From NCBI GenBank assembly GCA_001662655.1, contig KV460225.1: DNA of 64,000 nucleotides. One strand, written 5' to 3'. Numbering within the stretch: the stretch's first letter is position 1; each line of letters opens with the position of its first letter. Of the stretch, positions 5,242-64,000 are shown one piece after another. This stretch comes from Pseudogymnoascus verrucosus (Eukaryota). The notes below the pieces were generated by a model. The model worked only from the letters and a program-made list of their open reading frames with translations, was not told the DNA's origin and made no database searches. The translations under genes and the position numbers were made by a program.

Positions 5242-6124
5242 TTTTAAACTCGCGTCATGTCAGAGCGCGGGTGTCAGGTGTCGTGGGGTTTATAGCGGGT
5301 GTTTTTCTTGTCTGTTTTGTTTTCCTTTGTTATTTTCGTTGAGGAGGGTTAATGTGTGGAGGCGGGAAGGGAAGATGGAGAGAAGGGTGTGGGGAGGGGA
5401 GGTAGATGGCTGGTACATGGATTGGAGGGTGGCGAGGGGAGGGAGAGGGGAAAGGGGGGTGGGGAGAGGTAGATAGAAAGTAGAGACTGGGGTGGGGGAA
5501 AGTTTGATGATGTATTTTCAAGTTAACTACGGTGTGGTTTGTGCGTGTGATGTGATGTGACATGTTCTTCGATTCAGGGGAATGGAGGGCTGAGTAACTA
5601 CGAGACTTACACCCCGCCCGTCCTCTACCTGATGGCAACTCTCAGACAGCAAACACATTGACATAAAGGACATACGACCCCCCCTCCCAACCCATTCACG
5701 ACACCCACCCCAAGGGCCCGCACGTCACCCACTTCGTTTCTCCCCCGTGAACGATAAACAAGATGACTTATTTCTAGTAGTTATATTTTTCGAATTTCCT
5801 TTCCTTCATGTTTCTGAGAAAAATGCTGCTCAAAAGTTACAAGAGACCACGGCCACCGACCGTCCGATGATAGACAGATAACCCAGATACATATGTAAAA
5901 CACCCCTATTTTGGAAAAAGCCCGGTATGCGTTGCTCATTACCCACGTTCCGCGCGTCGTTCTACCACCACTACCACCACTGCCACCACCGCCTATTCTC
6001 CCCCCTCCTCTTCCTCCCTTTCCTTCTTCTGCCTCCCTCCCATCTTCATTCTATCAATCTATCCCCGGCACCATTAAAGTAGTTTTTCGTCAAACAGACA
6101 GACAACCAGCTGAGAGGGAAGCGT

Positions 6125-42046: not shown

Positions 42047-43815
42047 TTAAATATTTGGAACAGTATCCGATATTGCAGTACCCTCGAATGCGTGTCGAAG
42101 GCGGATATCATAATCCTCTCTATCTGACATTTTCTTCATCCCGACTTTAACGTAGTCTTCTGCCCAGTACCATGGCATAATCAGTTCGAAATTGTCATGA
42201 CCCGTAGTATGCATAATGAACCTAGGTTGGATCTGTTTGTAGAATAGTCGAAAAATACCTGTTGGGCTGGCAAGGGCAAGCGTATACCAAAATATTCCCT
42301 TATCCCAGTTCAGCTTCATTGCAGCTGACAGCAGCGGCTTCCCATCGTAATTACAAGAGGCGGGACTTTGAGCTTGTTCCTCTTCCGCCGTGAATTTGTC
42401 CATAAATTCTGCCCGGACCTTATCATACTCTTCGTGCCCTTCCTCAGCAATCTCATCGCAAGCCTTGCTCGTGAGCCAGGTCGGAGTCCGAAACATATCT
42501 AGTGGCCGGGTGCTTGCCCACTCAAGATCCACAAGTGAGGTGATGTTCCAGTTTTTATCAACGAAGAGGTTGCTCTGGTGAAGATCCGTTAAGGTGAAAA
42601 GAAAAGGTCCACGGCGACATTCCCACTTAAAAAATGATGGCAGTACTGTCCTCATTGCCGTTAACGCTGATGTCTAATAGATATAATCACCTACACCCTT
42701 TATTGCGTTTAGCTGATGTCGTAGTCGATTATCATGGATGCTAATGATACTCATCGCGTATGAATCCGCTGTAGAATAAGTCTAGTCTTGGGGTATATCT
42801 GTCGGAATTTCCTCGTTTTCTAGCTCGAAAATTTCAACACTGGCCTATTTGCCAAGCGCAAGAACCCGTCACGGTCAATTATGAAAGATCTAATTTTAGG
42901 TAGGGGAGTCCGTGCCATACTGAGCATTATCCAGGAGAGATCGTGAAAGAGGTTGTTGCGTAGCCTACTGTCATCCCGCTTTTCCTGAAGATATGCATAG
43001 GCGCCTGCCTCACATCGAATCTTTTCGTCTCCATTCCCAGGCCGAAAGGCTTCCCCAACACGATATGGGAGAGGAAATCTAATTAGAACACGCCGTCCAG
43101 GCTGTTCCTTCCCTTCCCAGGGGCTAATTGTGACTGGAATGCAAACATTGAAGCTACTTGTTCCCCTCCCCCCTCCAGTATGTGCATCTCGGTTGAGAAT
43201 CCGTTCGCTCATCGAACGCTCATAAATCCCCTACGTCTAACCTATCGCAAAAGAGAACAGAGTCCACACAGCTAATGTAGAAGAATTTTATACCGTCAAA
43301 CCGCCATCACCATCCGGCCGTCAGTCAAGCACACACCACCATATAACCCTTCCCCAACCTAGAACTTCCACATACGACCATAGACTCAAGAGAATTGGGC
43401 ATCCCGTCCGCTCTGCCATACACAAGCTTGAGATCGGTGGATTAGTAGTTGGGTGGGTGACCACCAGCGAATACCCACTGTTGTATGTTATTTTTGTCAT
43501 TTTTGTCATTTTTGCCCCCCACCAGGGGGGAAGCTGTAACAATGACGGATAGAGGTTAGGTGATGGGATTACTTGGGATTTTTTGTGCCAACATGACGTT
43601 TGGGTCTTAACATCAGCTACCTGGCATAAAGTAGGCAACCTTAGATTTAGGTGATGCGCAACGATAGCTTTAATCCAACTGCGCTTGTTGTTAATGTGGT
43701 TAAAGAATTTGACTTCTTCGGCTGGATATCGTAGGCGATGAAGGATATTGACCTCTTCATCTTTAGCAGTCGAGTATGTGATCTCTCCACGAGAAAGAGG
43801 CAATGCCCTCGGCAT
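42047..43815 (-). pseudogene. APH/phosphotransferase-like kinase pseudogene split by a 5S-containing insertion
   Basis: 5' part ends near CQVADVKT (~43604) and resumes at SFNVCIPV..IRFPLPYRVGE..DEKIRCEAG (~43157). DLHQSNLFVD..LVDLEWA kinase-like motif. In-frame TAG stops at 42782-42784 and 42674-42676, plus a frameshift. Confidence 0.85.
43370..43488 (+). rRNA. 5S rRNA, intact
   Basis: 119 nt ACATACGACCATAG...CTGTTGTATGT with paired termini, a T-run terminator after it, and TATA-like ATATAA about 30 nt upstream. Confidence 0.96.
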
Positions 43816-44411
43816 TATGAAGTGGTAAGGAGCTGAAGAGGGCAGACATCAGTGCACTTCGAAATAGGGACATAGTAAACAAAAGTCGAGGTCACGTTCT
43901 GTTTGTATGTGGCTTGTAATGTTGTGGCTAGTTGTCTCCTTAATTCTCATAGACACGTGATCATAATGAATAGGCGTGAATAATTTTGCGAGGATATGTC
44001 GTCGGTGACTGTTGGCGATCTCACTAAATTTTATATAATTCTGAAGTGCAGTTTAGTTCGAATGTTGGTCTTCCTTTTCCCATCTCCCGCCGTTTTGAAA
44101 TATCACCTTTTCGTAATAGAGTCTCCTTCATACCGCGTCCAAGGAAAATCACCGAATCACGACATGGGTAAACAAAGGGATCATAATTTAATATTTAACA
44201 TGCCAATGCTCATTTTTTCTCTCACGCCAAGAAGCCAGATTGATATCATCGAATAAGACGCCTTTTGCTGAAATGTATGCCATGAATATCTAGACCCTAC
44301 ATGCCGGCATCCTCGGTACACAGTAGCCCAAGGCGACTGATGTATACATAGGACTTTCTTTCAAATAGCTCATTCCCGCCCATTCCTGCCCTTCTCCCAG
44401 CCATACGCAAT

Positions 44412-45386
44412 CTAAGCCTTGGTGGCAGTGCGCATGGACGAAGCGCGACGCTTGCGGAGATCGGCCTTCTCGGCCTTGACGTCGTGGACACGCTTGGCGA
44501 GGATGGCGGCGTACTCAGACTAGCATATCATTAGTATAGCGTTCTTGCAGTGTATATATATATTGGAATACTCACAGCAGCATCCTTGGTCCTCTCGGAG
44601 TTGCGGCGCTTGAGCGCAATGCGGTGACGCTTGTGCTGGAGGCGTTGTGGGGTAACCAGGCGCTGGATCTTTGGTGCCTTGGTGTATGCCTTCTTGCCCT
44701 CGCCCTTAGGTTGGACCTCGCGGCGAATGACGAACTTGCGGACCTATAGTTGAAAATTCCGTTAGCGTGGGTTCTGCTCACACTCTGTACCGTTTGCACG
44801 GACAGGCGATGAAGATGGACAAACGTACATCATCATCCTTGGTGAGGCCGAAGAACTTGCGGATCTTGGTGGCGCGCTTGGGGCCAAGACGCTTGGGGTG
44901 GACGGTGTCGGTGACGCCTGGGATGTCGGCATCGCCCTGCTTGACGATGGAGAGAGCAAGGACGGAAAGATCCATGGCGACGATGCAACCGCGGACGGAC
45001 TTGCGCTTGCGCTCACCGGTACGGCGGGGGCGGTAGCAAGAGTGTCCATCGGAGAGGAGAAGGCGGACACGGGTTGGGTGCATGACACCCTGCTTCATGG
45101 GGAAACCCTGCTTGTCGTTGCCTCCGGTGATCTTGAAGATGTAGCCCTTGAACTCATCTCCGACGGAGTCTCCGGGAACCTCAGCGCCCATACGCCTGTT
45201 ATATGTTAGATTCGTTCGTTCCAATGAGATTCGAAATATCGTACTTCTCCATGAAGACACGGAGTCTGCGCTCGTCGTCGATCTCGACCATCTTCTGGCT
45301 GCCATTGGCAGGCTATCGGAACGTCAGTATATCGTCCATTTGGTCTGAATAGCATTTGCGCATACGTATGAGATGTTAAGCTTCAT
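44412..45386 (-). CDS. RPS6: 40S ribosomal protein S6 (eS6)
   Basis: [50 protein letters not shown], and C-terminal RRASSMR; 4 introns. Confidence 0.97.
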
Positions 45387-45784
45387 GGCCGGCTAAAGAA
45401 TTTGTCGAAAGGCCGGTGGTTGTTGATGAGGTCGCGATCGGGATCAAACAAGAAGGGAATCAATTTTGCGAAATTCGTGTGTGTGCTCGCATTTTGCGCT
45501 AGTTGTGGGAATAAGCGAGCCAAATTTCGGAGCTAATGTTGTGGGCTAGTGGTGGATTTGGTAAGGGCTGAAAAGAAATGACTAAGCAAAATAGTGGGTA
45601 GCTCTTTCCACTTTGGTTTTTCCGTCGTGACTATGGGGATATTTGAGATATTTTGGCAATTTTAGATAGGAAGGCAATTGAGAGTCCAGGATATTTGAGA
45701 GGATACCTTACTTTCAGTAATTTCTTATAAATCAAACTGGTTTGCCTATTGGAGTGATTTTAGACAGAGTAATTTAGTCACTTT

Positions 45785-45820
45785 ACGCGCTTGGAGTCGC
45801 TTAACGCGTCTCGTCGCGTC
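45785..45820. promoter_or_regulatory. MCB-like (ACGCGT) element cluster upstream of CTF8
   Basis: ACGCGT at 45804-45809 flanked by ACGCG and CGCGT partial sites. MBF control of S-phase genes is established in fungi. Confidence 0.55.
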
Positions 45821-45955
45821 CAACTATATCAAGAGGCACAGCAATTATAACCAGATCCACAAAGTTATAGCACATGTTCATCTTGTATATTCTCAGAATA
45901 AAATGATATAATTCAATTTCAAAGAAGAAACAGATAAGCTCAAAAATCCGCAAAA

Positions 45956-46444
45956 ATGGCTACGAAAGTGGCCCTCTACCCGTCACCAAAAGCCCTCGAG
46001 AAGCCCTTGGAGAATCCATTACCCCAGCTACTCCAGACACCATCCGGGCTTGCTCTGCTAGAGATGCAGGGGACGATCAACACACCCTCTCCTCCTACTC
46101 AAGATGAAGACGACGAGTCAAACCAGCCGGGAAGCTATGAAACACCAATCGGGCGCCTTGTCTTCCCAGACTACGAGCCAGGGACATCAGAAGGCGGAGC
46201 GTGGCAGAAACGCGTCTATCTCTATGTAGGCATGCATCAGCGTCTCACGGGAGAGGTCAAGAAACTTTCAAAAGCTATTGCTATTATTCGGAAACGTGCG
46301 CCGTCTGAAACCGAGAACACTTCGAAGGAGGGGCAGGGCGTTGAAGAGCTGGAGATTGTGGAGATTGTGAAGTGGAAGATCATCTTCTCGAACCGGCCAG
46401 AACCAGTGGGGACTGCTGTTGTGGACGTTGTTGTTGACGCTTGA
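45956..46444 (+). CDS. CTF8: Chromosome transmission fidelity protein 8
   Basis: LALLEMQGTI, YLYVGMHQRLTGEVKKL, and IVKWKIIFSNRPEPV. Confidence 0.9.
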   Translation: MATKVALYPSPKALEKPLENPLPQLLQTPSGLALLEMQGTINTPSPPTQDEDDESNQPGSYETPIGRLVFPDYEPGTSEGGAWQKRVYLYVGMHQRLTGEVKKLSKAIAIIRKRAPSETENTSKEGQGVEELEIVEIVKWKIIFSNRPEPVGTAVVDVVVDA

Positions 46445-46937
46445 GAGACGTTCTTGCAGGTGGATTTTACGCCAAAGAATGGATATCAGGGCAGCTGTAT
46501 TCAGTAAGGGTCGTGGTACCCTAACGCATCAGCTGAGGGCAAAGGGTGGCTCAGGTATCAAGCACGCTTGCAATGCGAATTACGGTGGCAATACGCGCTG
46601 CAACTTCATGCAAAGAATAGGTCGCGCCGCTGCCTTTAGCCACATGGCAGCAGTTCTTGAGTGGCTAGGGAAAGGAATGCCTTGGGAAGTGCCACAGGCG
46701 TATCTCTTGTGAAATAGATTGATGGGCTTGGTATCAGTGGTGTAGAAAGAAAAATATTGTCAATATACCCTTGAATTATTTGAATTAATTATATATGCCT
46801 GCTTTATCTACCGTATTTTGTAATTGTGAGCGAAAAAGATAAATGATACCCCACCTCCCCAAATCCCCCACCGTCCGGTCACAACACATCACAGCACAGC
46901 ATGGCAGTATTAAGTTCCCGACATACACATAATAATC

Positions 46938-47056
46938 ACATACGACCATAGACTCAAGAGAATTGGGCATCCCGTCCGCTCTGCCATACACAAGCTTGAG
47001 ATCGGTGGATTAGTAGTTGGGTGGGTGACCACCAGCGAATACCCACTGTTGTATGT
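46938..47056 (+). rRNA. 5S rRNA, intact
   Basis: Identical to the copy at 43370-43488 and followed by a TTTT terminator. Confidence 0.96.
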
Positions 47057-47138
47057 TTTTGCCTTTATTTTCCTTTTTTTGCTGTGTAATTTTGTAGTGT
47101 GCAGGCGGTATTTATACTTGTTGGGAGTAATCATCGTC

Positions 47139-47218
47139 ACAGTAAATACAGTAAATAGAGTATATAGATCAAATATTTTTACTACACTATCCTACAGGCC
47201 TACGTATTCTACTTATAG
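47139..47218 (+). repeat. ~80-bp motif, copy 1, shared with 52841-52918
   Basis: ACAGTAAATACAGTAAATAGAGTATATAGATCAA...CTACAGGCCTACGTA..TAG. Confidence 0.8.
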
Positions 47219-48199
47219 GCCGAACCCCGCACGGAAGAGAGGAGAGGCAGCGTTCAGTCTTCGTATCAATACAGGATTCTACGTAATAGCCCAAAGCCCC
47301 GTGACCCCCTACTGCCCTGTTCATATTGAAGATCCTTACAGCTGCACCACCGGCAATTCTGACCCATTTGGGAGTCGGACTTTGCGCCGGAGAAACCTTC
47401 GGTTTCAGGGTCAATAGCCCACTGTACCCCAGCGCCCAAGTCCTTCTCCCTCCAAGAATACTTCGCGTACGACAAATAGCTAGTGACCCCTTGGTATGCA
47501 TTCATCGAAAGGTAGAACTTGGGGTGTTGATGTGGTGGGTCATGGAGTTGGGCACAGATATTACCGGAGAGGCCCGCGATGCATAAGCGCCGCTGAATTA
47601 ATATAGCCAATGACGAGGTACGATAGCAAGCCAACAAGAGCGACTGGACAGGACTCAAGGACAGACAAATAATTGGTTTCATTTTGTCTCATGCTGTGAT
47701 TCAAATAACTACGAATAGCGCTTGCTCGTAAGTACTAATGGGACATAAGTGCCAGAGATGTCCTACGAGGAGTTGGAAGGGTCTAGCCATAGTCTATAGC
47801 TCCTTCTGTGCTTTATTTAGCATTACAGAAAGCAACTCCATCCATCTTTAAGTGGTTGCTTTAACACCAATAGCCCACTTAAGTTGGATTATAGGCGCCA
47901 ACTGATACTACCCACTTAAACAACTTGCATGGATCGCGCATTTTTCCTATCGCTACATGCAGTATGCTCCGTACTAGGTAAGTCTCTGTTGGAGTAGGGG
48001 GGCGAACTGGTGTTACAGCTGACCCCTCCTTCTACATGTTGGTTGGGGGCCAATCTCGCCATATCAACGTCTGCCGTGCAATATGAAGGTGTTGGAAACC
48101 TCCATCTTTTGTTGCATTTGCGAATATCACAGCCATATATTGCTGCACAGATTTCCAACGACGAAGTCCTTTCTGGACAGCCCACTTTGCACTTGAAAC

Positions 48200-51100
48200 A
48201 TGTCCAATTCCTTTCCAGAACGCAAGATATTACCCGTAAGGTCAAGAAGAAGCCTTGGAAGGGAACGACGAAGCGTTTCGAATAGCGACCAAGGTCAACT
48301 TTCAACACCACCGATTTTTGGAAATCCTCTGCGCATCACGCAACCTCCAGAGATCTCGCCTGCTTCTGATAACCTCTCTCCACCAGTGTCTCTAGAGCAT
48401 GAGATCTTGCCTATGCGATTGAGAAGGAGCCTTGATCAGGCGGGAGAGCGACAAGATCCTATTTCAACATTGGGGGCTTCCGCAAATTCCCAGCGTGTCG
48501 AGCGAACTATAGAAGTCGCCCCAGCTTCTAGCGACCTCTCTCCACCGAGATCTGACTCTGCGGTTGCATCTAATGTCACACCTAGCAATGCAGGATTTCT
48601 CTCTTCTAGTTATGAGGGTAACGACTTCGCTTTTAAAGGCCTTGACTTTGGAAGACAGCCCACTCTCCAGCTCGATGCAATGAGACCCTCACCAATTCCG
48701 GACTCACAGACTCGGTCTAGCGATCTGTCTTTGCCAATTCTGTCCGGGCTCGAACCAGAGGACCCTCAGTCTTTGCATATCTTGTTTTCTGACGAAAAGA
48801 TAGCTGTTTCTACTGAGAACGAGGGTCTCGGAATGCCAATACCTGTTTTACTCAATGGGGACTCGGCTTCCGCTGAGTGTGGCCCATCGACTCCGCCGCG
48901 GAGGCGGACTTCTCTCTTTAGTCAAATGTCAGAGCTAGGTACAAGTCCATCCCTGTACCCACACCAGCGAAGTGTATCGGTCTCTTCTAGTATAAGCGAT
49001 GTCAGCTATTACAACGATCCCACTAGCCCTTATGATGTCGGAAGTGAGGAGCCGCCATTGGAACCCTTCTTCGCCTCACCTTTTCAAACAGCGTTGCAAA
49101 AAGGACTTGATATTGCAAAGGATGCAGCCGACGCGATGGAGACGGCGGGGCAATCTCTAGTGGCAGGGGGCGATCTTCAAAGGCTAATTAATGATGCTAA
49201 GGAGTTGAGTACGTTTAAAAGCTCTGAAACGAGAACCATCGCCGTTCTAGGAGATTCGGGTGAAGGTAAGAATGAGCCGTTAAATTATGCTGCATAGGTC
49301 TGATATTCTTCTAGGAAAGAGTAGTCTCATTAACTCTCTTCTTCACTTTCCAAATATCGCTAAAACAGTAAGTACATATCTTATAACGGGCGTTTCTAAA
49401 TCTAAACCTAACAATCCGACAGGGAGATATTGGTGCAGCCTGTACTTCAGTTGTTACTGAATATAGGCAGAAGACAACGGACCATTTGGCGCCTATTACA
49501 ATTGAGGTTGAGTACCTCTCTATGGGCGAAATTGAAGATCTAATCAAGGAACTGGTCTGGAACTACCGCCAGATGTATCTTCCACACACTGAAGGTGATA
49601 GCGTTTCTGAAAATGAATACGCTACAATGCAACGCGAATCGGAACAAGCATGGTCCTCACTTGAGGCAGGATTTAGCCACCAGCCTAGCTTTAACAAAGC
49701 TATGCTTATAAATGATATATCCGAAGCTGGGCTGTCTATAGCGAATAGCCAATTAGTTCAATGGGCGTATGAGCTTAATTGGCCAGATAGTGGAGAGAAT
49801 GGAAAGTGGACATCAACAGCAGATACTGCAGATGAATGTTGTGAGAAGACAAGTGTATTTATGGAAGATAGGTTTTGGCCATTTACAAAAATCATCCGGT
49901 AAAGTTTTCCATCATACTCTATCATTTATTAGCCTCTAATTGAGTATCGATAGTGTTTATCTTCAAGCAGACGTCTTAAAGACTGGTATTATTCTTGCCG
50001 ACTTGCCAGGTTTGTAGCTTAGGTTTGTAAATGCAGTCACAGATTAACTAACAAAACATATAGGTCTACATGATACAAATCTAGCAAGAGTAAAAGCAAC
50101 GCAGGACTATCTTTTAAGATGCAACTATATCTTCATCGTTGCAAAGATCTCTCGAGCAATCACAGATCAGTCATTGAAATCATCCCTCTATTCTATCTTA
50201 TCTCGGCATGCTGAGTTGGAATGGGAGGAGTCCGCTGGGAAAAGCATGAAAGTTGCTGTTGTCTGCACTAAGTCAGAGGTTGTAGTCTACTACAAAATTA
50301 AATTTAGAGGGTATGGCTTACACATAACTAGGATATTAATGTGAAGGCGGCACGACAAGAGTTTTGTGGCCCAAACAAGAGCATACCACAAGGAGTGATG
50401 ACGAAACTTGATGAAGATATCAAGGAAGCAAAAGCGCAGCGCAATAAAGCCCTTAAGAAACACTTAAAGCGAAAGTATGAAAGACTGGGTATGCTTGAGA
50501 CTAGACTACTAACCTTTTTATAGGCAACAATTGCTTCTTATTAGCGCTCGCAATACGCACGTTAAAGAAGGTCTACAGCGGGCCTATTCCTCAAAGGTCC
50601 CGAATGGAGGGCTAGAGGTATTTTGCGTCTCTAACACAACATACGGGAAGTATACAATAAAGGGTAATGTTGAAATGGTTCAAGCTAGTGGTATACCAGA
50701 GCTTCGACGATTCTGCTACACCATGACCGCCCATGCGCAGTTACTTGAAGCAAGGCATTTCCTTTCTTCAATGTTGTCGAGTCTTCTAAATTCAGCTGAG
50801 CTTTTAGCGACTAAACCTACAGAATCTCAACAACCCACAGAGACTGGGTTAGACGAATCTATGCTTCTCGCCGTTAATAATGGAAAAACGGAGGTTAGTC
50901 ATATTATTTATTCGATATTGAGGTCGGCTAACCTTCGGAGACATTGAGGGCAGTCTCTCAGTCCAAAAGCGAATTCCAGGACACCTTTCGGGAGCTGGTT
51001 CTTATGCTTCTAGGTGAGTTTGTTTAAAGCTGTTGTAGGTTAAGGGGCTACCTGCCTAACTTTATTCAAGACAAGCAAAGCGAGGTTTGGGAAACTGTGG

Positions 51101-52198
51101 CGAAACAAAATAGTGCAAGTTGGAACAATGTAATATCCATCTCTCATTCACAGCAGTCCGAATTCTAACTCAGCATAGTGGCATTGGAGTAATGTCTCTA
51201 AATAGTGCACAACTTTATGTACACAGGCTGATTTAGCTCGTGTAGCTCAGTATAATGCCTGGTGCAGACACGATGGTTACCACTACACGGAAAAGCGGGG
51301 GAAAGTCAATTGGAACGCTGAACTCATCTGGAAAATGAGGATGGAGATGGCATTCCAATGGGAGACATTAGAAGAAGACATTCCAACGCTGTTTAAAGAT
51401 TTGTTACAGTCCGCTAAAGCACCGCTACTGGCCTTGCAGTCAGAGATGAGAGGTAAGTTGATAGAGATTAGTTTTCTGCGGTAAAATAGCTGACATTCTA
51501 GTGAAGAAAAATGCTTCAGCCCTTTGCTCGTTGAAGGAATTGACTTCAGAATTCAAAGTTTGACATATAGATGCAGTCTAGCAGAGCAGAATTTTGCAAA
51601 GGAAGTCAAGTAAGTTTTATTGTGCCCTTGCAAACTTCGATACCTCTTAAAGCCTCGCTTGGCCAAGGACCCTTTACTTACACCAACGAGGATTACTCGC
51701 AGTAAAGCATCAGAGCCGAATGAATCCTCCTATATTTTCGCAGAGATGGTTCCAGCTTACCGATCAGCAGCCAATGAATATGGTGAGTATACCTACCCAG
51801 GTAGACTATTAAGACACTATTATCATCTAAATCGACTTCAACCTTATGCTGATGTCTCTTTTGTGGCAGGCACCGGCAAAGCAGCTCGTCAACGAAATAC
51901 CGTGCAAGGACGAATCACGAACGGCACCTTATTTCCCAACATCTCGACGGCGATAAAGCGGGAAATTGAAACCGCGGCCAAGACAACTTTCGATAGCGTA
52001 CTGAAATCATTAGAGTCAGACTTTGCTTTAATTGAGAACGATGTTACGATGGCGTTGGCTTCTGCGCCGCAGCAGTCTGGCGACAGAGAGGACGTGGCCT
52101 GCGAAGAGGAGGAAAGACGGAGAGGAGAGTTGGCTGGTGCAGTAAGGGGCCTCAAGAGACAGCACGCCGAAGTACTTGCGAGCATTGCAGATATATGA
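48200..52198 (+). CDS. Dynamin-like / SLIP-GC-like P-loop GTPase, many exons
   Basis: Spliced G1 IAVLGDSGEGKSSLINSLL; GAACTSVVTEY; FWPFTKIIRVY; G3 LADLPGLHDTN; G4-like VVCTKSE; SGIPELRRFC; YNAWCRHDG..WNAELIWKMR. Long low-complexity N-terminus, so the start is uncertain. Confidence 0.85.
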
Positions 52199-52552
52199 AC
52201 GCGAGAGCAAATAGCTAGATAGCATTTATATCACGATTATTTTATTTTATTATATAACGTGACGTATGGGTATCTCGCGCATATAGGGATCTCGCGCACT
52301 TTACCCTACTACCTTAGCTTCTAACTCTTATTACTACTAACCATGGGCTATAAACGTGAAACTCCTGAGGCCTATTCTAAAGATGATATACAAAAGGCAA
52401 TAACAAGCTGGAAAGAGAAAAAATTCCGATTTATTCTTGCTACTGCCTGCGGGAGTGTTTAGACCTCGCTGTCTCCCTGCATACTGTACCATGTTTCTAC
52501 ATGTGTTGTCCACGTAATCGTGGTTATAATGTGGTATGGGTAGTAATCTACC

Positions 52553-52613
52553 ACATACGACCATAGACTCAAGAGAATTGGGCATCCCGTCCGCTCTGCC
52601 ATACACAAGCTTG
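52553..52613 (+). pseudogene. Truncated 5S rRNA (nt 1-61 only)
   Basis: Identical to the other 5S copies through ...CACAAGCTTG and then diverges. The 3' half is absent from the rest of the window. Confidence 0.92.
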
Positions 52614-52840
52614 TAGTTCAGTGGATCGATGCTCTCAATCGTGCCAATAGGCATAGCGTGGAATCTGAGCCACGTAAACTGAGCCCCAAAAAAGTGCAGA
52701 GGTGCCACATCAAGACCACAAGTAGCTACAGCAGGTGTGTTGGGGGGAGGACCGGAATACGGGGACCACCACACGAATTGTGCAGTGTCTTCGATGGCCG
52801 GAACTTCTTCACTTTGGCGCAACAGAACAGAAGGCTTCAA

Positions 52841-52918
52841 ACAGTAAATACGGTATATAGAATCTATAGATCAATTGAATTACTACCTAATCTACGGGCC
52901 TACGTACGCTATTTGTAG
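52841..52918 (+). repeat. ~80-bp motif, copy 2
   Basis: ACAGTAAATACGGTATATAGAATCTATAGATCAA...CTACGGGCCTACGTA..TAG. Confidence 0.8.
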
Positions 52919-53008
52919 TCCTGGGGGAATCCCCCAAAACCCTGACAAGCTGAGCTCTCCGGGCTCAGCTGGGTTAGGATCAGTGGCTCCCAATAGTATG
53001 GCGCCACT

Positions 53009-53104
53009 GTTACGCGGGTGAAGAAAAAAGTGGCACGGTTTACTGCCAGAAATATACCAGAAATGTGCCAAGACCCGTGCCACTTATTGCTTCAACCGCG
53101 TAAC
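53009..53104. repeat. 30-bp imperfect inverted repeat (27/30) with a 36-nt spacer
   Basis: GTTACGCGGGTGAAGAAAAAAGTGGCACGG at 53009-53038 versus the reverse complement of 53075-53104, GTTACGCGGTTGAAGCAATAAGTGGCACGG. Confidence 0.9.
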
Positions 53105-53932
53105 TGTCTCACCCGTAGGTCAGCTGGGGAGCTGGACGGTCCGACGGGAATAACCCGTTATTTTGGGCGTAAAAGCCCACCGTATCCCAGCGGGAATGTC
53201 CGTTTCCCCCAACAAGGTGACTACATTGTGAAGTTCACGTGATTTGGAGATTTGGGGAAGGAACCGCCTACCTACTCTGTGCCCCTGAATCTGTGCCAAG
53301 CGTTCAGCTTGACGGAGTGGGCCCAATTGGGCTTCGATGTCTCACAGTTACGTCGCGGTTCTGAGTGTCACGCTGATGACGAATGAGGACATGATGCCCA
53401 AAAGTATCCTTTTGGTCGAAAGTGATCCTGAGGGCGAGTCAGCCAACACAGTTGTGCAGGTCACTTTCTCCTATAGGAAATCTTTGCTACGATCTCTCAC
53501 ATCGGTGAGATTTCTTATTGGCTTCTTGCCAGCCATATTTATACCAAGTCAGCGATATAATTCCCATTAACCCAATTGCATTCGGGCGGCTTATCGATCT
53601 CGAAAACTAACCCGATTCAAATTTCCGAAGTGAGACAGGCTTGAAGGAATGCCTCCGCCGAGATGGATGAACAGAAGGAATCTCAAGGAAATATCGTGAT
53701 GACCCATCATGAATTACAAACAAAGAGAAAAGGCGCGAGATGAAGATCCTATTACTGTAGAACAAATCCAATAAATAGTATAAAGCTCGACTTGCAACAA
53801 GATCTTCAGCAACCAAACGATATTAAACATTCCCCTCACAGCTCCCCACGTACAACTCCTCAAGGACAGCTTCTCCAGCTCATCGAGCTCCTCAAGCTCA
53901 GACCATATCAGTTATCAATCAAGTGATCAAAC

Positions 53933-54584
53933 ATGTCCTCAATCGTCGCAGTCATCGGTACTTCAAGGGGCATTGGACTCGAGCTCGTCAAGGAACTTTC
54001 GCTATCCGCAAACACCCGAACTCCATCCCCTGAGTCCCATCTGAAGGACGACGACATCAAAATGATCGCTCTCGACATGACAGATGACGCCTCCGTCATA
54101 GCCGCAGCCATGAATGTTCGTGAACTCGATACTCTCATCATTAACGCACCCATTGGAAACGACGATCATCTCCAAAGTCTCTCCTCTCTCGACTTCATCT
54201 CTTACCTGAACACCAATGTGGTCGGACGCGTTATCCGCGCATTCCTCCCCGCCTTACTTGTTCGCAACACACGTCAGATCGTAATTACCTCACCAGAAGC
54301 TGGATCCCACCAACTGCAAATCGGCTCAACATTTGGTCTTGTAGGGCCTTTCGGAGCCTCGAAAGTAGCAGTGAACATGCTCGCTGTGTAGTGATCACAA
54401 TGAGTTGAAAGATGAAAGATTCACTGTTGTTCCGATGGGTAGGGACAGATATCGGGAACGTTATGGGGGATAGTGGCATACCAGTGCAGACGTCGACAGG
54501 CGCTATGTTAGCGCTATTTAAGGATTAAAGCCACAGGACAGTATAACGTTTCTCAACTACGATGGAAATATCATCCCATGGTAG
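53933..54584 (+). pseudogene. Short-chain dehydrogenase (CsgA/C-factor-like) pseudogene
   Basis: GTSRGIGLELV Rossmann motif. Catalytic YxxxK reads FGASK. Premature TAG at 54389-54391. The remaining HNELKDERFTVVP / GWVGTD / FLNYDGNIIPW-stop is broken by frameshifts or stops. Confidence 0.8.
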
Positions 54585-55091
54585 TCTCTTAAGTGGGCTA
54601 AATTTAAAGAGACTTTTTATTTTATACATGCTTTTCAGGATAGCTTCTTTAATGGTCTAAAAGTTATATAGACTGAGTTTTACTAAAGTGCATCCGTAGA
54701 CGTCTTTTCTAGATACCGCTTTGCGTTTTCACAATAAATATCAATTCCTAGAATCGGAAGATAGGTTTTCCTTCTGAAGTGCGATGACGCGATTTTGGGA
54801 TCTGGCAAGTAATTTACTGTCTTGCTTGGAAGCCAGAATGTAGAATTCAACTTTATCAGAAAACAGCATATATTATATTGGTGCTTCAACAACGTCGAGA
54901 TGCTCAAGAAGCGGTTTCTTAGAATCTAAATGAAGTAACAAGCTAGGTAAGTCTAACGATCCTATTTTCGTTTAACAGGCACACAGCGCCCGTCTCTATG
55001 CAGATTCTCTTGGACACCCCTACCTTCATGAGATGTACATTCATTTCAATTTTCATGGCTCTTATCTCCTTGCTGAATAATGTTGCATCGT

Positions 55092-55093
<2 letters not shown>

Positions 55094-55122
<29 letters not shown>
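55094..55122. repeat. (GATT)n microsatellite, imperfect
   Basis: About 7 GATT/GGTT units. Confidence 0.7.
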
Positions 55123-55603
55123 CTAAGCTTTGTCGGAGCAAAATGGACCTCACGTGATGATAGATCCGAGTGTGTGCTCGCGTGCTTGCTGGTTGTCGGA
55201 GAATGTTGGTCATGTTAAGGAGGAGTTGGTTGGCATCGCCCCTGCCAATCCAGGAGAACCCCGAGACTTAATGTGCTCACTATTTTGTGAATGGCAAAGA
55301 ACAATATGGCATGCCTCTTTCTATACCAGATCTATGTCGATCCCTTGGTTGCCGGCAATTGTGGTAGACAAGGTTTGTTTGTAATTGTGCATCTAACAAG
55401 CTCGTCCCCGTTTCTTGACTTTGATTTATTTCTCAGTTTTCAGTTATTTGGTTATTGGAAGACCGACCATAGATTCTTTCACAATTATGTTTCTTCAAAT
55501 GGTTGATTCAGCTTGAACTTCTGAAGCTGTATTATATTTCATCTGCTCCGTTCTCCGGCTTTTCTCTCCCTTTCTACCGCTGTACTACTAAAACACGTCC
55601 AAT

Positions 55604-58600
55604 ATGGCCGACTCAACAACAGTCGACAAGACGGCAGTCACCTTATCAGAGACACCACAAGCACCAATTGAAACCTCGAGAGCTAATAGCGATCATAATG
55701 ATGACACCGGCAAAGAAATCATCAAAAAGCTTCTTCAAAGCCAATATAGACACAACGATGGCAGTGCTAAGAAAGTTGGCCTAATTTTCGCAGGTCTCAC
55801 GATTGCAGCACCCTATTCGGATTCAGTCTTAGTCAAAACTCTTCCACTCGCAATATGGAACACCTTCGGGACAGATCAGGTCCGATTCCTCAAGAATCTC
55901 TTCCGCGTCAATTCAAAGAAGAGCAAAACAATCAATCTACTTTCTGATTTCATTGGTCTGGTCAAACCAGGTGAAATGCTCTTCGTGCTTGGTCGCCCAG
56001 GAAGTGGTTGCTCAACCTTTCTACGAGCTGCTGCAAACCAGTCCTCTTTGGCCGTTTCTGGAAATTTATCCTTCGCGGGCATTTCACACACCGAGTTCAA
56101 GAAGAAGCATAGAAGGGAGACGATCTATCTCCCAGAAGAAGACCGACACATTGCGTCATTGTCCGTCAGCCAAACATTGAGATTTGCCTTGACGATGAGC
56201 TTGCCTTCCAACTTCCGAGACAGTGCCACAGTTGACGAATTGGTCATTACTGTGGGTAAAATGTTTGGTCTCGAACATGCCCTTGAAACGCCAGTCGGGG
56301 GTCCTTACTCTCCAGGAGTTAGCGGTGGGGAGAAGAAAAGAGTATCAATCGCAGAAGTCCTGGCAGCAGGATCTTCACTCCAATGCTTTGACAACTCAAC
56401 GCGCGGACTCGACTCCTCAACTGCTCTTGACTTTGTCAAGGCTCTTCGAACGCTGACGGATGTTGGCCAGAAGACCACACTTGCAACACTTTATCAGGCG
56501 GGCCAGAGTATTTACAATCATTTTGACAAGGTCATACTGCTTAGTGAAGGTCATCAGGTATTCTTTGGTCGTGCAGACGAAGCTGAGGCGTATTTTGAAG
56601 GATTGGGATACGTCAAGATACCTGGCCAAACAACCGCAGAGTTTCTAACTACAGTTACGGATGTGACTCAGCGAAGATTTACCCTAGGCACCACAGCGGA
56701 GCAAATCAAGACCGCCACCGACCTTTCCGCTGCGTTTCGATCTTCTACGATCTATAGTCGCCTTCAGAGGGAAATATCGGACTACGAGAAGGCACAAGCC
56801 ACAGAGTCCTCCTTACTTTCAACATCGTCGTACAACCTTGCTTTCCCAACGCAGATATGGGAGTGCTTGAAAAGAGAGTACCAATTGGTTCGAGCCCAAA
56901 AAATGGTTTATTATATCAAATGGATCACTACAGTTATTCTATCCCTTGTCATTGGAAGCGAATACTTCGATCTGACCAGCGATGCTTCAGGAGCATTCAC
57001 CAGGTCCGGAATTGTATTTTATGCTCTCTTGTTCAATGGTTGGCTCCAGTTCCCTGAATTGTTTGATGCTCATACGAACCGTCCAGTGTTAGAGCGTCAA
57101 GGTATTTATTGAAATGCTTAACTTACTCTCATTTACTTGCTAATATGAAATGCGTAGCTTCCCTCAACATGTATCGACCATCTGCTGTGGCATTTGCTAG
57201 AGTTCTCATCGATCTTCCCCTCATTGCGTTCCAGCACATTATCTTCATCATATCCTTCTACTTCTTCGTTCATCTTCAGGTGGACGTAGGAAAGTTCTTT
57301 TTCTTCTATCTCACCTTGTTTCTCTCTACGGTCAACTTTAGTAACTTGCTGCGGATGTTCGCCTACTTTGTCCCCTCTCTGGATGACTGTAAGTGCTCTA
57401 AAATACTCCAACGAATTGATTTTAGTGCTAATACAGGTCCAGGTTTTCGATATGGCGGTACTGCATGCATTGTATGCATTCTCTTTGCGGGGTTCTTAAT
57501 CCCTCCTGAGTCCATACGTCCATATTTCGGCTGGTTGCACTGGATAAATCCGATGTTCTATGCATATGAAAATGTAAGTTTCTTCTTTTCAAGCATCTTA
57601 TGCAATGCTGATGGATTATAGGTCTTTGTCAACGAATTCGATGGCCTTACACTAACTTGTGATGCAAGTTCGCTGATTCCCAACTTAAACAGCAACAACA
57701 TTGCTTACCAAACTTGTTCAATTCCTGGAGCAACAGCGAGACAAGGCACTGTTCCTGGAATTCAATATGCCAATGCTCTGGGGTTTTTCTTTGATCATCG
57801 CTGGAGAAACATTGGTATCCTCATCGCAATTGCTATTGCTTATGTCTTGATAGGAGCTCTTGGTAGCGAGATCATGACTTTCAGCTCGCAGGGCGGCGCC
57901 CCCATTATCTACTCGAAGAAATCCACAGATAAAAAGAGCTCAAGTTGTACTCAAGATATTGAGAAATCTGCTGCTGTCTCTCTTACTGAAGCTAAGGAGG
58001 ATACCAATTCTCTCGAAAAGAGACATAATGGACCTGCACTGGCCTGGAAGAATCTGACCGTAAACATCGGGGAGGCTAAGATCATCAAGGATGTCTCGGC
58101 TTATGTTCGACCGGGAGACTTTGTGGCTCTCTGTGGTGCCAGTGGTGCAGGAAAAACGACTCTACTCTCAGCATTGAGCCAAACAAATTCTGTCGGAACG
58201 CTAGACGGAGAGGTAACATTCGGCAATACCAGACCTGGGAGAGCTTTCAAGAAAACTATTGGGTTTGCCCAACAAATGGATCTCCATGATGGGACCGCCA
58301 CCATTAGAGAAGCTCTGGTGTTCTCTGCGTTACTGCGCCAGCCAAAGACATACACCAATGACGAAAAGATTGCTTACGCCGACCACGTTATTGACATGTT
58401 AGATCTGAGAAAGTACCAGAACGCTCTTATTGGTGACGAAGGCTCCGGACTCGGCGTGGAGATTATCAAGCGGGTAACTATTGGTGTTGAGCTTGCAGCG
58501 CGGCCAAAGATCTTGTTCGCAGATGAGCCTACATCTGGTCTGGACTCTCAAAGCGCGATTCATATTGTGAGTCTTCTGAGGAATCTCTCCCAACAGGGAC

Positions 58601-60085
58601 AGGCTATTCTGGTTACGATCCATCAGCCTTCCGCATCCTTGTTCTCCCAGTTTGACAGACTTCTTGCGCTGTCATCAGACGGCAGACAATTGTACTTCGG
58701 CGCCAGCCAGGATGTGATTCCATACTTTGAAAAGAACGGCGCTGTGTGCCCACCAGATGCGAATCCCGCCGAGTTTATCCTCGAGACTGTAGGCGCTGGT
58801 ATCAATTCTCGGACTGATGGAGTAGGTAAAGGTTGGGCAGACACATGGGCACAATCTCCTGAGGCCACGCAGATTGCTAGCGAGATTCAACATCTCCAAT
58901 CTGAAGAGCATGCTGTGGAGAACTTTGAGGATGACCCTGATAGCTTCAGTACTTCTACCGCGCGCCAGACACTCTTACTAACCAAGCGCATTCTCACCAA
59001 CCAATGGCGCAATGTCACATACATGTACTCCAAGATTTGGGTTCATGTTGTATGTGGCATCTTGGTCGGCTTTACATTTTTCAATGTCGGGACCAGTCCT
59101 AGCGAACTGCAGAACAGGTGAGGAGAGGCGGGATCATTATTAATGGATGATGTTTGCTAACTGATCAACAGGATTTTCAGCGTCTACTTTGTCGTCTTTC
59201 TCGTCAACAGCATCGTGAATGTCATTCTTATGCGCTTCTTCTTTGCTCGTATGTACTGGGAGTATCGCGAAGGACCTTCTAATACATATGGCTGGGTTGC
59301 TTTATGCTCTGCGAGCATCTTGGCAGAGATGCCTGGAGCCATACTGTGTGGAACGCTGTATTACCTGTTCTGGTATTTTCCTTCTGGGTTGCCATTGGGA
59401 TCCACAGCAGGATACATCTTCTTGTTCGTTCTGACTTACGAAGTATTCCAGGTAAGTTTAGTCTTATTTTCAGTACCTTTCTCACAGGTCTTGTCTGACA
59501 TAAACAGGTCACCGTCGGACTATTCATGATGGCGATGAGTCCCGATCTTGGTGCTGCTGGCAATATTCTCGTATTTATCATCTGCACACTCAACTGGTTC
59601 AACGGAATTATTGTGCCCTACAACCAGATCCAGGTCTTCTGGCGCTACTGGGTGAGTCTTCCTTTCACCAAACATTCCGTCCTACACTAACCCAAATCAA
59701 GCTCTACTATCTCAGCCCTTTTACCTACCTCCTCGGCGGCATGGCGACCTCTGTAATCAGCGGCCAGGCCGTAATTTGTTCCGAGGCCGATCTAAGCATC
59801 TTCTCGCCGCCATCTGGACAATCCTGCGGCTCCTATGCCGGAGACTGGGCACTTTCCGCGTCGGCCCAGCTCTTGAACCCGAACGCGACATCGAACTGCC
59901 AGGTGTGCAAGTGGACCACAGGCGATCAGTATCTCGAGATCTTCAATCTCGGGTCTGGAAAATTGGGCGGCATCTGGGCGTACTGGGGAATCTTCCTTGC
60001 GTTCACCCTCTCTAATGTGGCATTGATCTACTTCTTTTTTTGGGCAACGAAGATTAAACACTGGAAATTGTTTTACTTTTTTTAG
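55604..60085 (+). CDS. Full-size ABCG/PDR multidrug transporter
   Basis: NBD1 GRPGSGCST, VSGGEKKRVSIAE and FDNSTRGLDS; NBD2 GASGAGKTTLL, KRVTIGVEL and DEPTSGLDSQ; two transmembrane domains; about 6 introns. Confidence 0.95.
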
Positions 60086-60370
60086 ATTTGAGGAGAGCCA
60101 TGTTAACTTGTGGCTGATTCTTGGACTATAAAGTGGATATCTTTCAAAAGTCTTGGTTCTACGAAAGCACGGGGAAAGGAAAAATCGAGGGGTTGGGGAA
60201 GCGACGATCGATGCAGGTTGAGTGCCAGAGGAGGTTGGTATGGTTGCTCAGTTGCGGATTGTAGATTGACATCACATTTTGTCCTTTTTTGAAATTGTTT
60301 CTTCGTTAACTTACCTAAACCTAAATATCTCACTTATATGAACTTTTACAACTATTATTTCACAGGATAC

Positions 60371-61261
60371 TGTACGAGCATCCACACAATGGAACGTGGA
60401 CATCCATGCGTTTCGCGAGTGTCAATCGCGACAACACCAACATTACCTACAGAGTAGATAGAATATACCATAACTAAACAATGCTTAACATGCTTCTAAG
60501 TCCTGTGAAGACTTCTCGACATGGCAAGATTACGACTCCGACTCGTGAAAAAGCGATTGGAATGTTACGAGCCAGGCAATCTTGTCGCAAAGTTTCTGTT
60601 GCGCTCGGCTTATCAAAGCCGAGTGTGTATAACATCGCGACAAACCCAAGCTCTTCTAGGCCTAGAAAGCAACGACAGGGCCGGAAAGAGCATTGGATGA
60701 GCGAGATCGTCTACTTCCAATGGGCAACCAAAAAAAAAGGACTCCCGGTAGTTTAATTGGGCAGAACTACAACGACAAAGTGAGCTGCGTGGAAGTGCTG
60801 AAACCAATTGAATGTCGCGTCAACGCGGTTTGTGATGCGCTCGGCGATGTGTTGATGGTGTATCGGTGGCTACGTTGTTCCGTCGTAGGTTGTGTTCTCG
60901 GTATATAAATGGGTACTTATTCCTTTAGATTTCATTTTGAAGCTGGTTGAGAGCCGTTTTAGAAAGAAGCTTGAGATTGTCGAGTTCTTTCTTGAGATCC
61001 GTTTGAGACTTGAGAAAAACTTACACCAGTGTGTGTATACCGGACTTCGCCTCAGAGGATTCAAGCTTGCAAAGACCACAAAAGGCATGGCAACGGAATT
61101 CTAGACATAGGAAATGTATTGTATTATAGTTGTCTATATATGTACTTATTTATATAGCTATGTGAATCGTTGTTGTTGAATCATTCTTAATTGAAACCTA
61201 GTACTTGTCGTGGTCCTCCGTTTTGGTCCGGCAACTGCGCCCTTGTGTGCATGCTCGTACA
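60371..61261 (+). mobile_element. Internally deleted Tc1/mariner-like transposon
   Basis: Terminal inverted repeat TGTACGAGCATCCACACAA (60371-60389) matches 61243-61261 at 18/19; the TA within it on each side may be the target duplication. HTH remnant TREKAIGMLRARQSCRKVSVALGLSKPSVYNI and C-terminal-like RVNAVCDALG. No intact DDE core. Confidence 0.75.
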
Positions 61262-61773
61262 TATGGTATGGAGGCCACAGTTCGCAGCCCGGATGTTTCC
61301 CAGACTTTCTCCACCAACCTCAATGCTTCAATTCCCATCATGCTGCGTGAATGTCTACTTATTCGCGAACATTTCGATATTCGCGAAGCAGGTGTATTCG
61401 CCTTCGATGGCGCAATTTGCGAATTCGGCCGATTCATGGATACGTTCTGTCAAGTCCATTTTTACATGGTGTTATCTAATCCTTACTTACCCCGATACCT
61501 CAGGAACAACAATGGGCCGGAGCCAAATATCACAATCATAGAACAACATCAATAGCACCTTCCCGAACCGGCAGTCATGTATATATACTGCGATCAAGAA
61601 ACCTCAAAGGGCTTCGGCTCACCAATAACCGAACACTAAACACAGACAACCAGGGATCGAACAGGTGAGTGTTGTAGTGAGACATCCGGGCAATCTCTTA
61701 CTACAACTTTTCGCAACTACAACGTCCGCTTGATTGATATCGTGGCAAGCTACAGACTAAGTACATCTCCTTT

Positions 61774-62933
61774 CTACAGCCCCTGAGACTTATTCTCCCT
61801 ATACATATTATCCTCCCAACTTTCAGAATTCTTCCCGTCCTTATGTAGCTTCGCAAGTCTATCCACCACATGCTTGCCCGCAAATACGCCTTCGAAATGC
61901 TTAGGGTTGTCTTCTGTGACACAAACACTAAGTGGTTCAATGAATGCATTTCTATTGGGATGACCAAACCACGCGATTGCGTATCGAGAATGTATCGTTC
62001 CTCCAAGGGTAGCGCGTGTAGCTTCGTTTGTCGGCGGTTCGATCACTTGGTGCTCGGTCGACTTCAGCACGCCATTGAACCAGCGAGAGAGCAGGTCACC
62101 AACTAGCCGTTAAGTCAGTCTCAAAAAAATATCAGAAATTTGTTTTCGGTGCTGCAGAAGGGATAAGCGATAAGGGATCAGTGAGCGTTGCATTACATAC
62201 CATTTATAATGGCGCAGCCCGGGATTGGTGGCACGTCAAAGAACCGTCCGTCTTTTCCACGAACCTGCAACCCTCCATTGCTGTCATTGAATAGCAATGT
62301 CAAAGTGCCATAATCAGTATGTACGCCTGCTCGCACCCGGGTCTCAAACGTATCTATCGTCGTCTCTGGATAATGCAGGACGCGAAAGAAATGGTCCTTG
62401 TCCTGCACATACTGCAAAAAGTAGTTCCGCGGCAGCCCGACCTCCTCCGCTAACGTGCTCAGCAAACCGAGATGGATGTCATGGCTCCTCTCAAAGAACG
62501 CATTCATATCGGTCCTGAACTCGGGCCAGTCTGCCGGCCACTGATTTGGTCGCGTCACATCGCTGTCATCGCCCAGATCAAACGCCTCCTTCTGGTCTGA
62601 GAATTTCGAAGACCCGGAGGTCCGCTCTGGCGAGAACCAGCCGTGGAAGAACTTGCTTTCACCGGTTTCCACCTTCTCCTTTTCAGAGATAGGCTGTGAG
62701 AAAAATCGCGCGGCGTGCGCAAAGATCGTCTGCACGGCAGATTCGTCGATGCCGTGGTTTCTGAGGTAGACGAAACCAACGTCCTTCAAGGCCTGAAACA
62801 GCTTTCGCTTTTCCACAGAGCTCTCTTCTGCTGTAATGGCGCCATCCGAGTTCTTATAGCCTTCGAGTTTGGAGAAGTCGATAATTGGAAGGTTGGCTGC
62901 GGACGAGCTGGTCGTGTTTGGAGAAATAGCCAT
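61774..62933 (-). CDS. 2-oxoglutarate/Fe(II) dioxygenase (IPNS/DIOX_N type)
   Basis: LPIIDFS, VGFVYLRNHGI, DQKEAFD, RVLHYP, HTDYGTLTLL (HxD), LKSTEHQV (distal His) and SRYAIAWF; one intron at ~62104-62200. Confidence 0.92.
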
Positions 62934-63418
62934 GTTAAGTATGTTTTATCTCTACTGCTGGCCTGTTGTTTAGCGGGCGCCATCACTTTTATTCAATATC
63001 CTCTTTATCATCTTCTTGTTGTTAGCGTAGTCTATCACAAGCCTATCCGTCCCCATGTATACTCATGTCCGAACCCATGAGCTCAAGGCTGATAAGATCC
63101 TGCAGGAAGACCAAAGATTCCCGACAACCATCATACAGCGAAGGTGGCTGAAATTAACACGATTTGGCAATCAAGGTGTGCTTGTGTGCTTGTTGCCTAC
63201 CTCGGAACCATTCCGAATTCTCAGGCGTGCGTGCGTGGTTGTTGAGAGTTCAATTGGCACGAGTCACGCTATTATCATATTGCCTACCTTCCTATCCAAG
63301 AAGAAATATAAGATATAGACATGCTTCCTTACGTTTCTCCAGAGTGATTCTCAACAAATTTGCTTAAAATTAGTTCTTTATCCTTATTCAACATATCTGC
63401 TTTGATAGCAAATCAATC

Positions 63419-64000
63419 ATGTTATTTCAATCTCGTCTTCCCAAACTGGCAATACCCAATACCGATGTGTTCCACTACCTCTTTCATCAGGGGCGCAGGA
63501 GCTATTCTCGAGAGCGGATTCTCTATCGAGTAGACGGCTCGGACGAGACTCTTACATTGGCACAGCTGGAAGAAAGAAGCGAGAAGCTTGCTAAGGTCTT
63601 GATTGCTTCGTACTCAATCAAGCCTGGAGACGTAATTACAATTCTCGCGACAGATAGTGTAAGTTGAAATCGGAAACCACACTACAAACCCAAGAAACTT
63701 TTCTAATCGAGCTCTATAGATCAACTTTCCCATCGCATTTTTTGCAATTCTGGCAGCTGGAGCAACTGTGTCTCTGATTCCCATCCAGAAAGACCTTGGG
63801 TATCTGGATGTTGCTGGGAGACTTGTGCAATCTGGTTCCAGGTTGATTTTCACAGACCAGGCGCTCTTGAGCATTGCAGAAACTGCGTTGGCGATCATTG
63901 GCGTGATTCCAGTGATTACTTTGGAGGAGGTCGATTCCAGATTTCCCAGATATCCACATCTCGATGTTCTCCTGAAACAGGAAGTCAGCGCTCCGAGGTT
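63419..64000 (+). CDS. AMP-binding acyl-CoA ligase (4CL/luciferase-like), 5' part only
   Basis: MLFQSRLPKLAIPNTDVFHYLF, LTLAQLEERSEKLA, IKPGDVITILATDS|INFPIAFFAILAAGATVS; runs off the end of the window. Confidence 0.8.

Follow-up and report, generated by a model that had tools for sequence, protein, structure and literature searches.

A 5S rRNA gene of Pseudogymnoascus verrucosus broken at a palindrome: probable junction of a site-specific mobile element

In a stretch of 64,000 nucleotides from the fungus Pseudogymnoascus verrucosus (GenBank assembly GCA_001662655.1, contig KV460225.1), termed here the window, one 5S rRNA gene breaks off halfway and the DNA that takes over resembles the half that it replaces. 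Is such a gene a decayed duplicate, or is it the scar left by an insertion? A first-pass annotation, made from the letters alone, read the break as a site-specific integration junction with a target-like stretch on the element side, and attributed it to a Starship, a fungal element mobilized by a DUF3435 tyrosine recombinase (the “captain”). The integration junction is supported by its recurrence at a second locus, by complementary junctions in related genomes and by its coincidence with the direct repeats of Osiris, a known Starship. On balance we consider the window to hold the left junction of a site-specific element at the palindrome CAAGCTTG of the 5S gene, in an old and rearranged copy that would probably belong to a Starship of the Osiris/Enterprise kind. 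Elements of this kind, and their preference for 5S genes, are already in print, and the finding is a refinement of known biology. The features discussed below are collected in Table 1.

Table 1. Positions in the window of the 5S genes, the junction, the proposed element-side DNA and the genes to its right
Feature	Position	Strand	Basis
Intact 5S rRNA gene, copy a	43370..43489	+	Rfam RF00001, 74.2 bits, full length
Intact 5S rRNA gene, copy b	46938..47057	+	Rfam RF00001, 74.2 bits
TATA-like hexamer	52524..52529	+	-29..-24 of the truncated gene; read from upstream sequences
5S nt 1-61, putative target-side DNA	52553..52613	+	Identical to intact copies a and b
Perfect 8-bp palindrome CAAGCTTG	52606..52613	.	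5S nt 54-61; palindrome check
Terminus X (58 nt), conserved, putative element side	52614..52671	+	L003 match and contigs of related genomes
Inner part peculiar to the window copy	52672..53216	+	L003 alignment, joints in relatives, inverted repeat, raised contig depth
Module B, second conserved family module	53217..53262	+	L003 368-409 vs window 53221-53262, 88%, 42 nt
Unique DNA right of the proposed element terminus	53263..64000	+	Pfam
Short-chain dehydrogenase	53927-54391	+	Pfam
PDR-type ABC transporter	55592-60085	+	Pfam
2OG-Fe(II) oxygenase	62193-62945	-	Pfam
AMP-binding enzyme, start only, at window edge	63374-64000	+	Pfam

Three 5S copies lie within 9.2 kb of the window. The two intact ones are identical, co-oriented and 3.6 kb apart, and they flank the genes for ribosomal protein S6e and Ctf8. 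The third copy, which falls below the Rfam thresholds, was described in the first-pass annotation as perfect up to ...AAGCTTG and cut at nt 61, and so it is: it agrees with nt 1-61 of both intact genes at 61 of 61 positions, its final bases are ...ACACAAGCTTG, and the identity stops at the last base of the palindrome, which is presumed to be the crossover or direct-repeat core. Behind ...AAGCTTG follows a T and then AGTTCAGTGGAT, which on recomputation again matched the displaced 5S continuation, nt 62-73 (AGATCGGTGGAT), at 10 of 12 positions; blastn extends the 5S alignment to 52626 with one gap. A match of at least 10/12 has a chance of 3.8e-5 at one register and of about 2e-4 within a few registers, and both strands of the window hold eight such sites, namely two in the intact genes, the junction itself and five of background. 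The 13 bases right of nt 61 contain two substitutions and one extra base against no change in the 61 bases to the left, so that divergence sets in as a sharp step at nt 61 and not as even decay. The 5S 3′ half was rightly said to be missing from the window as a separate piece, since a probe of nt 62-120 found only the two intact genes and otherwise matches of at most 10 nt.

The same junction was met a second time when metagenome contigs were scanned with 5S nt 42-61. This gave seven loci, comprising five intact 5S genes, one match without 5S context and one contig, L003, in which a 5S gene is cut at the same base and followed by the same 58-nt continuation (L003 23-149 against window 52545-52671, 93.7% identity over 127 nt). 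The upstream flank of L003 is unlike that of the window and its 5S half carries three differences, which makes it another, independent locus; one of these differences appears, on our reading of the sequence, to leave a helix II pair uncompensated. Because junction and continuation recur there, the window copy does not stem from a one-off deletion. Upstream, the two genes agree in a few bases and a TATA-like box and in nothing else, so that no copied block reached beyond the gene. This box, an AT-rich hexamer at about -29 to -24, precedes both intact genes, the truncated copy and the copy in L003 (which starts at L003 31), and its retention in both truncated copies accords with the in-place disruption of separate, real 5S genes; a moved block or an RNA copy would fit it less well than genes struck where they stood. 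The scan has a by-product in contig L007, where 5S nt 42-61 is matched exactly over 20 nt (at about 6001-6020) without surrounding 5S sequence, and about one such match is expected by chance in the collection.

What the two loci have in common beyond the junction is an ordered but short series of modules. The first 13 nt of the conserved terminus, termed X, include the 12-nt target-like stretch (52615-52626). After the common 58 nt, L003 continues with CCTTGCCGCC..., then with a G-rich (GGGTGAGC)n tract and then with module B, and there, at window position 53262, the homology ends, some 0.4-0.7 kb after it began. The inner part of the window copy is without the G-rich tract and instead holds, roughly at 52693-53216, about 0.5 kb of multi-copy DNA of another kind, over which the summed contig depth is raised and within which two 33-nt inverted arms lie at 53006-53038 and 53075-53107. 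Contigs of related genomes show joints that skip this DNA (52692>53215, 52714>53230, 52722>53227 and 52737>53221). A part of it, 52841-52921, resembles 47139-47221 (blastn, 78.3% over 83 nt), which begins 82 nt downstream of the intact 5S gene at 46938-47057, indicating that a second repeat family accompanies 5S genes. The repeat observation also involves window 47413-47458. L003 also has, within 1096-3307, a methyltransferase-like ORF and, behind it or inserted into it, an ORF matching HTH_23 and DDE_3, of Tc1/mariner-like transposase type; further on there are ORFs with LysM domains on the minus strand.

We then aligned contigs of four related genomes (X2, X6, X8 and X17) to window 44001-64000. 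Contigs of X2 and X6 span both sides of the region at about 99% identity, and the continuation X is multi-copy in all four, on at least eight contigs in X2, nine in X6, five in X8 and five in X17. These contigs match the window up to 52665 or 52671 and then pass into a common consensus that equals the next bases of L003. Complementary junctions, in which a conserved non-5S consensus runs into 5S sequence, were also found. They begin at nt 54/55 on at least two contigs of X2 and at least three of X8, and at nt 57 on at least seven contigs each of X6 and X8. A resumption of 5S sequence at these positions points to a direct repeat of 5-8 bp, and the contigs, unpaired as they are, show the junctions that insertions at the same spot would be expected to leave at their far ends. 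A third arrangement is not predicted by a simple insertion model: on two contigs of X2 and one of X8, X from 52633 onward stands behind a 5S 3′ end and an AT-rich spacer of 32-36 nt, and by eye the ends of these spacers resemble window 52620-52632. Such copies leave room for an origin by deletion, or for an element end that once carried the 5S 3′ half.

At the locus itself the contigs break inside the 5S repeat, and none of the four genomes bridges an intact 5S gene here. In X8 the left flank is covered to 52588, and 12 of the 14 bins of 53339-64000 have no depth, with a little at 58008-59341; as no X8 contig joins across, the missing depth does not count as absent right-hand DNA or as an empty site. 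Further left, at window 52414, at least two contigs of X6 diverge with a sequence common to them while another runs through; either a second, paralogous copy or an insertion variant of this locus might explain this.

The explanation that we favour would work as follows. A site-specific element would have integrated into a resident, promoter-bearing 5S gene by a crossover within the palindrome at 5S nt 54-61, leaving a left, “attL-like” junction in which the DNA up to 52613 would be target and that from 52614 the conserved terminus of the element. The first 12 or so bases of this terminus would mimic the displaced 5S sequence, much as two recombination partners would have similar arms when one recombinase binds both, and at the opposite end a conserved terminus would run into 5S from nt 54-57 and so produce the direct repeat of 5-8 bp. 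The mobilizer would most likely be a Starship captain, thus a DUF3435 tyrosine recombinase, of the 5S-targeting Enterprise/Osiris type, and the window copy would be old and rearranged, without the G-rich tract that it once had and with about 0.5 kb of other repeats added.

Several known elements can be compared with it. According to the starfish survey, 5S genes hold 23% of the curated Starship insertion sites, at least five independent target sites were deduced within them, direct repeats measure 6-16 bp, and Enterprise targets a palindrome (PMC11162782). For Osiris navis, an Enterprise-family Starship of Aspergillus fumigatus, the direct repeats ttaagccac, aagcc, aagccaca and aagccacacg are given in Tables S3 and S4 of PMC12153272. 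When anchored on the common CCCGTCCGCTC and AAGC, these fall on nt 53-64 of the window 5S, so that Osiris, like the element proposed here, inserts in the 5S coding sequence and at the aligned position, the identity in the window ending at nt 61. The window junction thus lies where Enterprise/Osiris insertions are expected, at 5S nt ~53-64 and at or beside a palindrome. The same study also gives Osiris direct repeats of 5-10 bp, a fragmented gene, putative biosynthetic clusters as cargo and 5S-rich hotspots, a 5S-rich locus being described there as a Starship hotspot (PMC12153272); the three 5S copies in 9.2 kb of the window are in keeping with this. The local target differs, reading CAAGCTTG in the window and AAGCCACA in Osiris targets, and by eye terminus X is unlike the Osiris terminal inverted repeats listed. 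In the part of the starfish supplement list that we searched, none of the repeats contained AAGCTTG, AGCTTGT, GATCGGT, CGGTGGAT, ACACAAG, TTGAGAT, GTTCAGTGG or ACCGATC, and the one occurrence of CAAGCTT was in an inverted repeat of Coccidioides that is unrelated. Voyager of Macrophomina and other Arwing- and Voyager-family Starships are likewise large, site-specific and found to split 5S genes, but Voyager sits 20 bp from the 5S start, at another site than that in the window, which suggests another captain lineage (bioRxiv 10.1101/2021.12.13.472469, PMC11162782). A more distant likeness is offered by the integrative elements and phages of bacteria that use tRNA genes, in which a tyrosine recombinase, a short core in a conserved small-RNA gene and a target-like arm come together; the present case differs in being eukaryotic and in its truncated form, which does not restore the gene.

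Which end of the element the window would hold, and how large that element would be, we infer. The first-pass annotation took the junction for the captain-distal end. Since the Osiris direct repeat reads in 5S sense in the orientation of the element, it is the captain end that would be expected next to the 5S 5′ half, contrary to that assumption. In Osiris the captain does lie there, whereas here no captain or remnant of one turned up to the right of the junction, in the 11.4 kb of the window or in 6 kb of L003: Pfam matched DUF3435 in none of the ORF translations scanned (14, 43 and 107), among them the larger ORFs of the whole window, smaller ORFs from most of the right-hand 11.4 kb (52.3-64 kb) and L003 1-6091. 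Of the Starship reading, the integration junction in a 5S gene is supported, while the Starship identity, the captain-distal end and a cargo reaching past 64 kb do not follow, no captain having been found. The captain could lie at the far end, beyond the window, and the far junction of the element is not within the window. A search of the window and the loci with the far-end consensus and the family continuation matched only L003's own continuation. By eye, X (AATCGTGCC) might form a terminal inverted repeat with the far-end consensus read in reverse complement, a likeness on which we do not rely.

The genes to the left are ordinary ones, those for ribosomal protein S6e, Ctf8 and a DUF7605 protein, and further left tryptophan synthase, PRPP synthetase and others. 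The genes to the right (53927-64000) look like part of a secondary-metabolite cluster, and the right-hand DNA from 53263 may be cargo of the element. Between the oxygenase and the transporter, a short ORF at 60478-60753 gives a weak match to HTH_22/HTH_23 (E 0.009) and is perhaps what remains of a decayed transposase.

How well does this explanation stand against others? The one that survives best, although we think it unlikely, needs no recombinase. An ancestral unit of 5S, T-rich spacer and X would have slipped at short TGGAT repeats and thereby lost nt 74-120 together with part of the spacer, and intact and deleted units would then have spread by duplication in a birth-and-death manner, the apparent target mimic being a decayed remnant of 5S nt 62-73. 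The contigs of relatives with a 5S 3′ end, a 32-36-nt spacer and X from 52633 look like that ancestral unit, the more so as the spacer ends resemble window 52620-52632 by eye and TGGAT occurs both in 5S nt 69-73 and in one spacer, and the want of a nearby captain is what this explanation expects. Yet a decayed remnant sits poorly with the sharp step at nt 61 (none of 61 bases changed to the left, three of 13 to the right), duplication of units with the unrelated upstream flanks of the window and L003, alike in no more than a few bases and the TATA-like box, and slippage with complementary fragments that begin at nt 54-57, in the same palindrome; moreover, the break lies at a documented Starship target position.

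The same contigs of relatives would be explained by a variant of the insertion model that we rate as distinctly improbable. The element would exist in two forms, one of which carries 5S nt 62-120, a terminator and a spacer at one end and so rebuilds a working 5S gene at CAAGCTTG on insertion, in the manner of bacterial islands that target tRNA genes; a restoring end of this form would account for X standing behind a 5S 3′ end and a spacer of about 35 nt. The window copy would be a deletion derivative that repairs nothing, and its 12-nt mimic the last trace of the carried half.

A 5S-derived, SINE-like retroposon has still less in its favour, and we hold it to be very doubtful. Here a polymerase III transcript running from 5S +1 through X to module B would have been reverse-transcribed and inserted widely, which would agree with a multi-copy family whose homology sets in near the 5S start and has a constant end point, module B, some 0.4 kb on in L003. 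Against this, 5S nt 74-120 is missing, the part that holds box C of the internal control region. The ends of the copies in the window and in L003 show neither an A-rich or repeat tail nor a target-site duplication, ARAGORN found no tRNA-like head in the window, both copies keep a TATA-like box at -29 that a retrocopy would not carry, and the complementary 3′-half junctions are left unaccounted for. The last explanation, that a single 5S gene was deleted in part or rearranged on the spot and resembles the target by chance, is the simple deletion that the first-pass annotation had set against its own reading, and it is scarcely credible, since the single such copy in the window is outweighed by the same junction and continuation in L003, by several contigs with the continuation in each related genome and by the low chance of a 10/12 match within a few registers.

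Some features of the continuation had seemed to be signals in themselves. The hairpins TGCC-AATA-GGCA and CGTGG..CCACG noted after the junction are both present, but as signals we rejected them and they carry no evidential weight: folded as DNA, 52600-52690 gave z = -1.37, with 21 of 200 shuffles at least as good, and CGTGG..CCACG is absent from L003. A tRNA-like continuation, with TAGTTCAGTGG as box A and CGTGG..CCACG as T arm, was rejected as well, ARAGORN finding 0 tRNAs in the window. Rfam, at E values up to 10, returned six weak unrelated matches for 52400-53400, and a pattern scan for the core of X gave no matches in prokaryote genomes or in viral contigs.

If the insertion explanation is right, the window offers a concrete and checkable junction for one family of 5S-targeting elements, and does so in a lineage with a 5S sequence unlike that of Aspergillus; an element arm that tracks the local 5S sequence bears on how captains choose their targets. 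Counts of 5S sequences in filamentous fungi have long included truncated pseudogenes (PMC5555474), and our literature search found no paper that ties them to Starships; the present case suggests that many of them may be insertion junctions and not decayed duplicates. The Aspergillus nidulans 5S pseudogenes of Borsuk et al., from 1988, are said to consist of a 5S 5′ half and a conserved block resembling an immunoglobulin switch region, and the G-rich (GGGTGAGC)n tract in L003, which the window copy is without, has the flavour of that block. On the improbable two-form variant described above, and should the conserved block of these Aspergillus pseudogenes be the same thing, the pseudogenes of the 1980s would be Starship scars.
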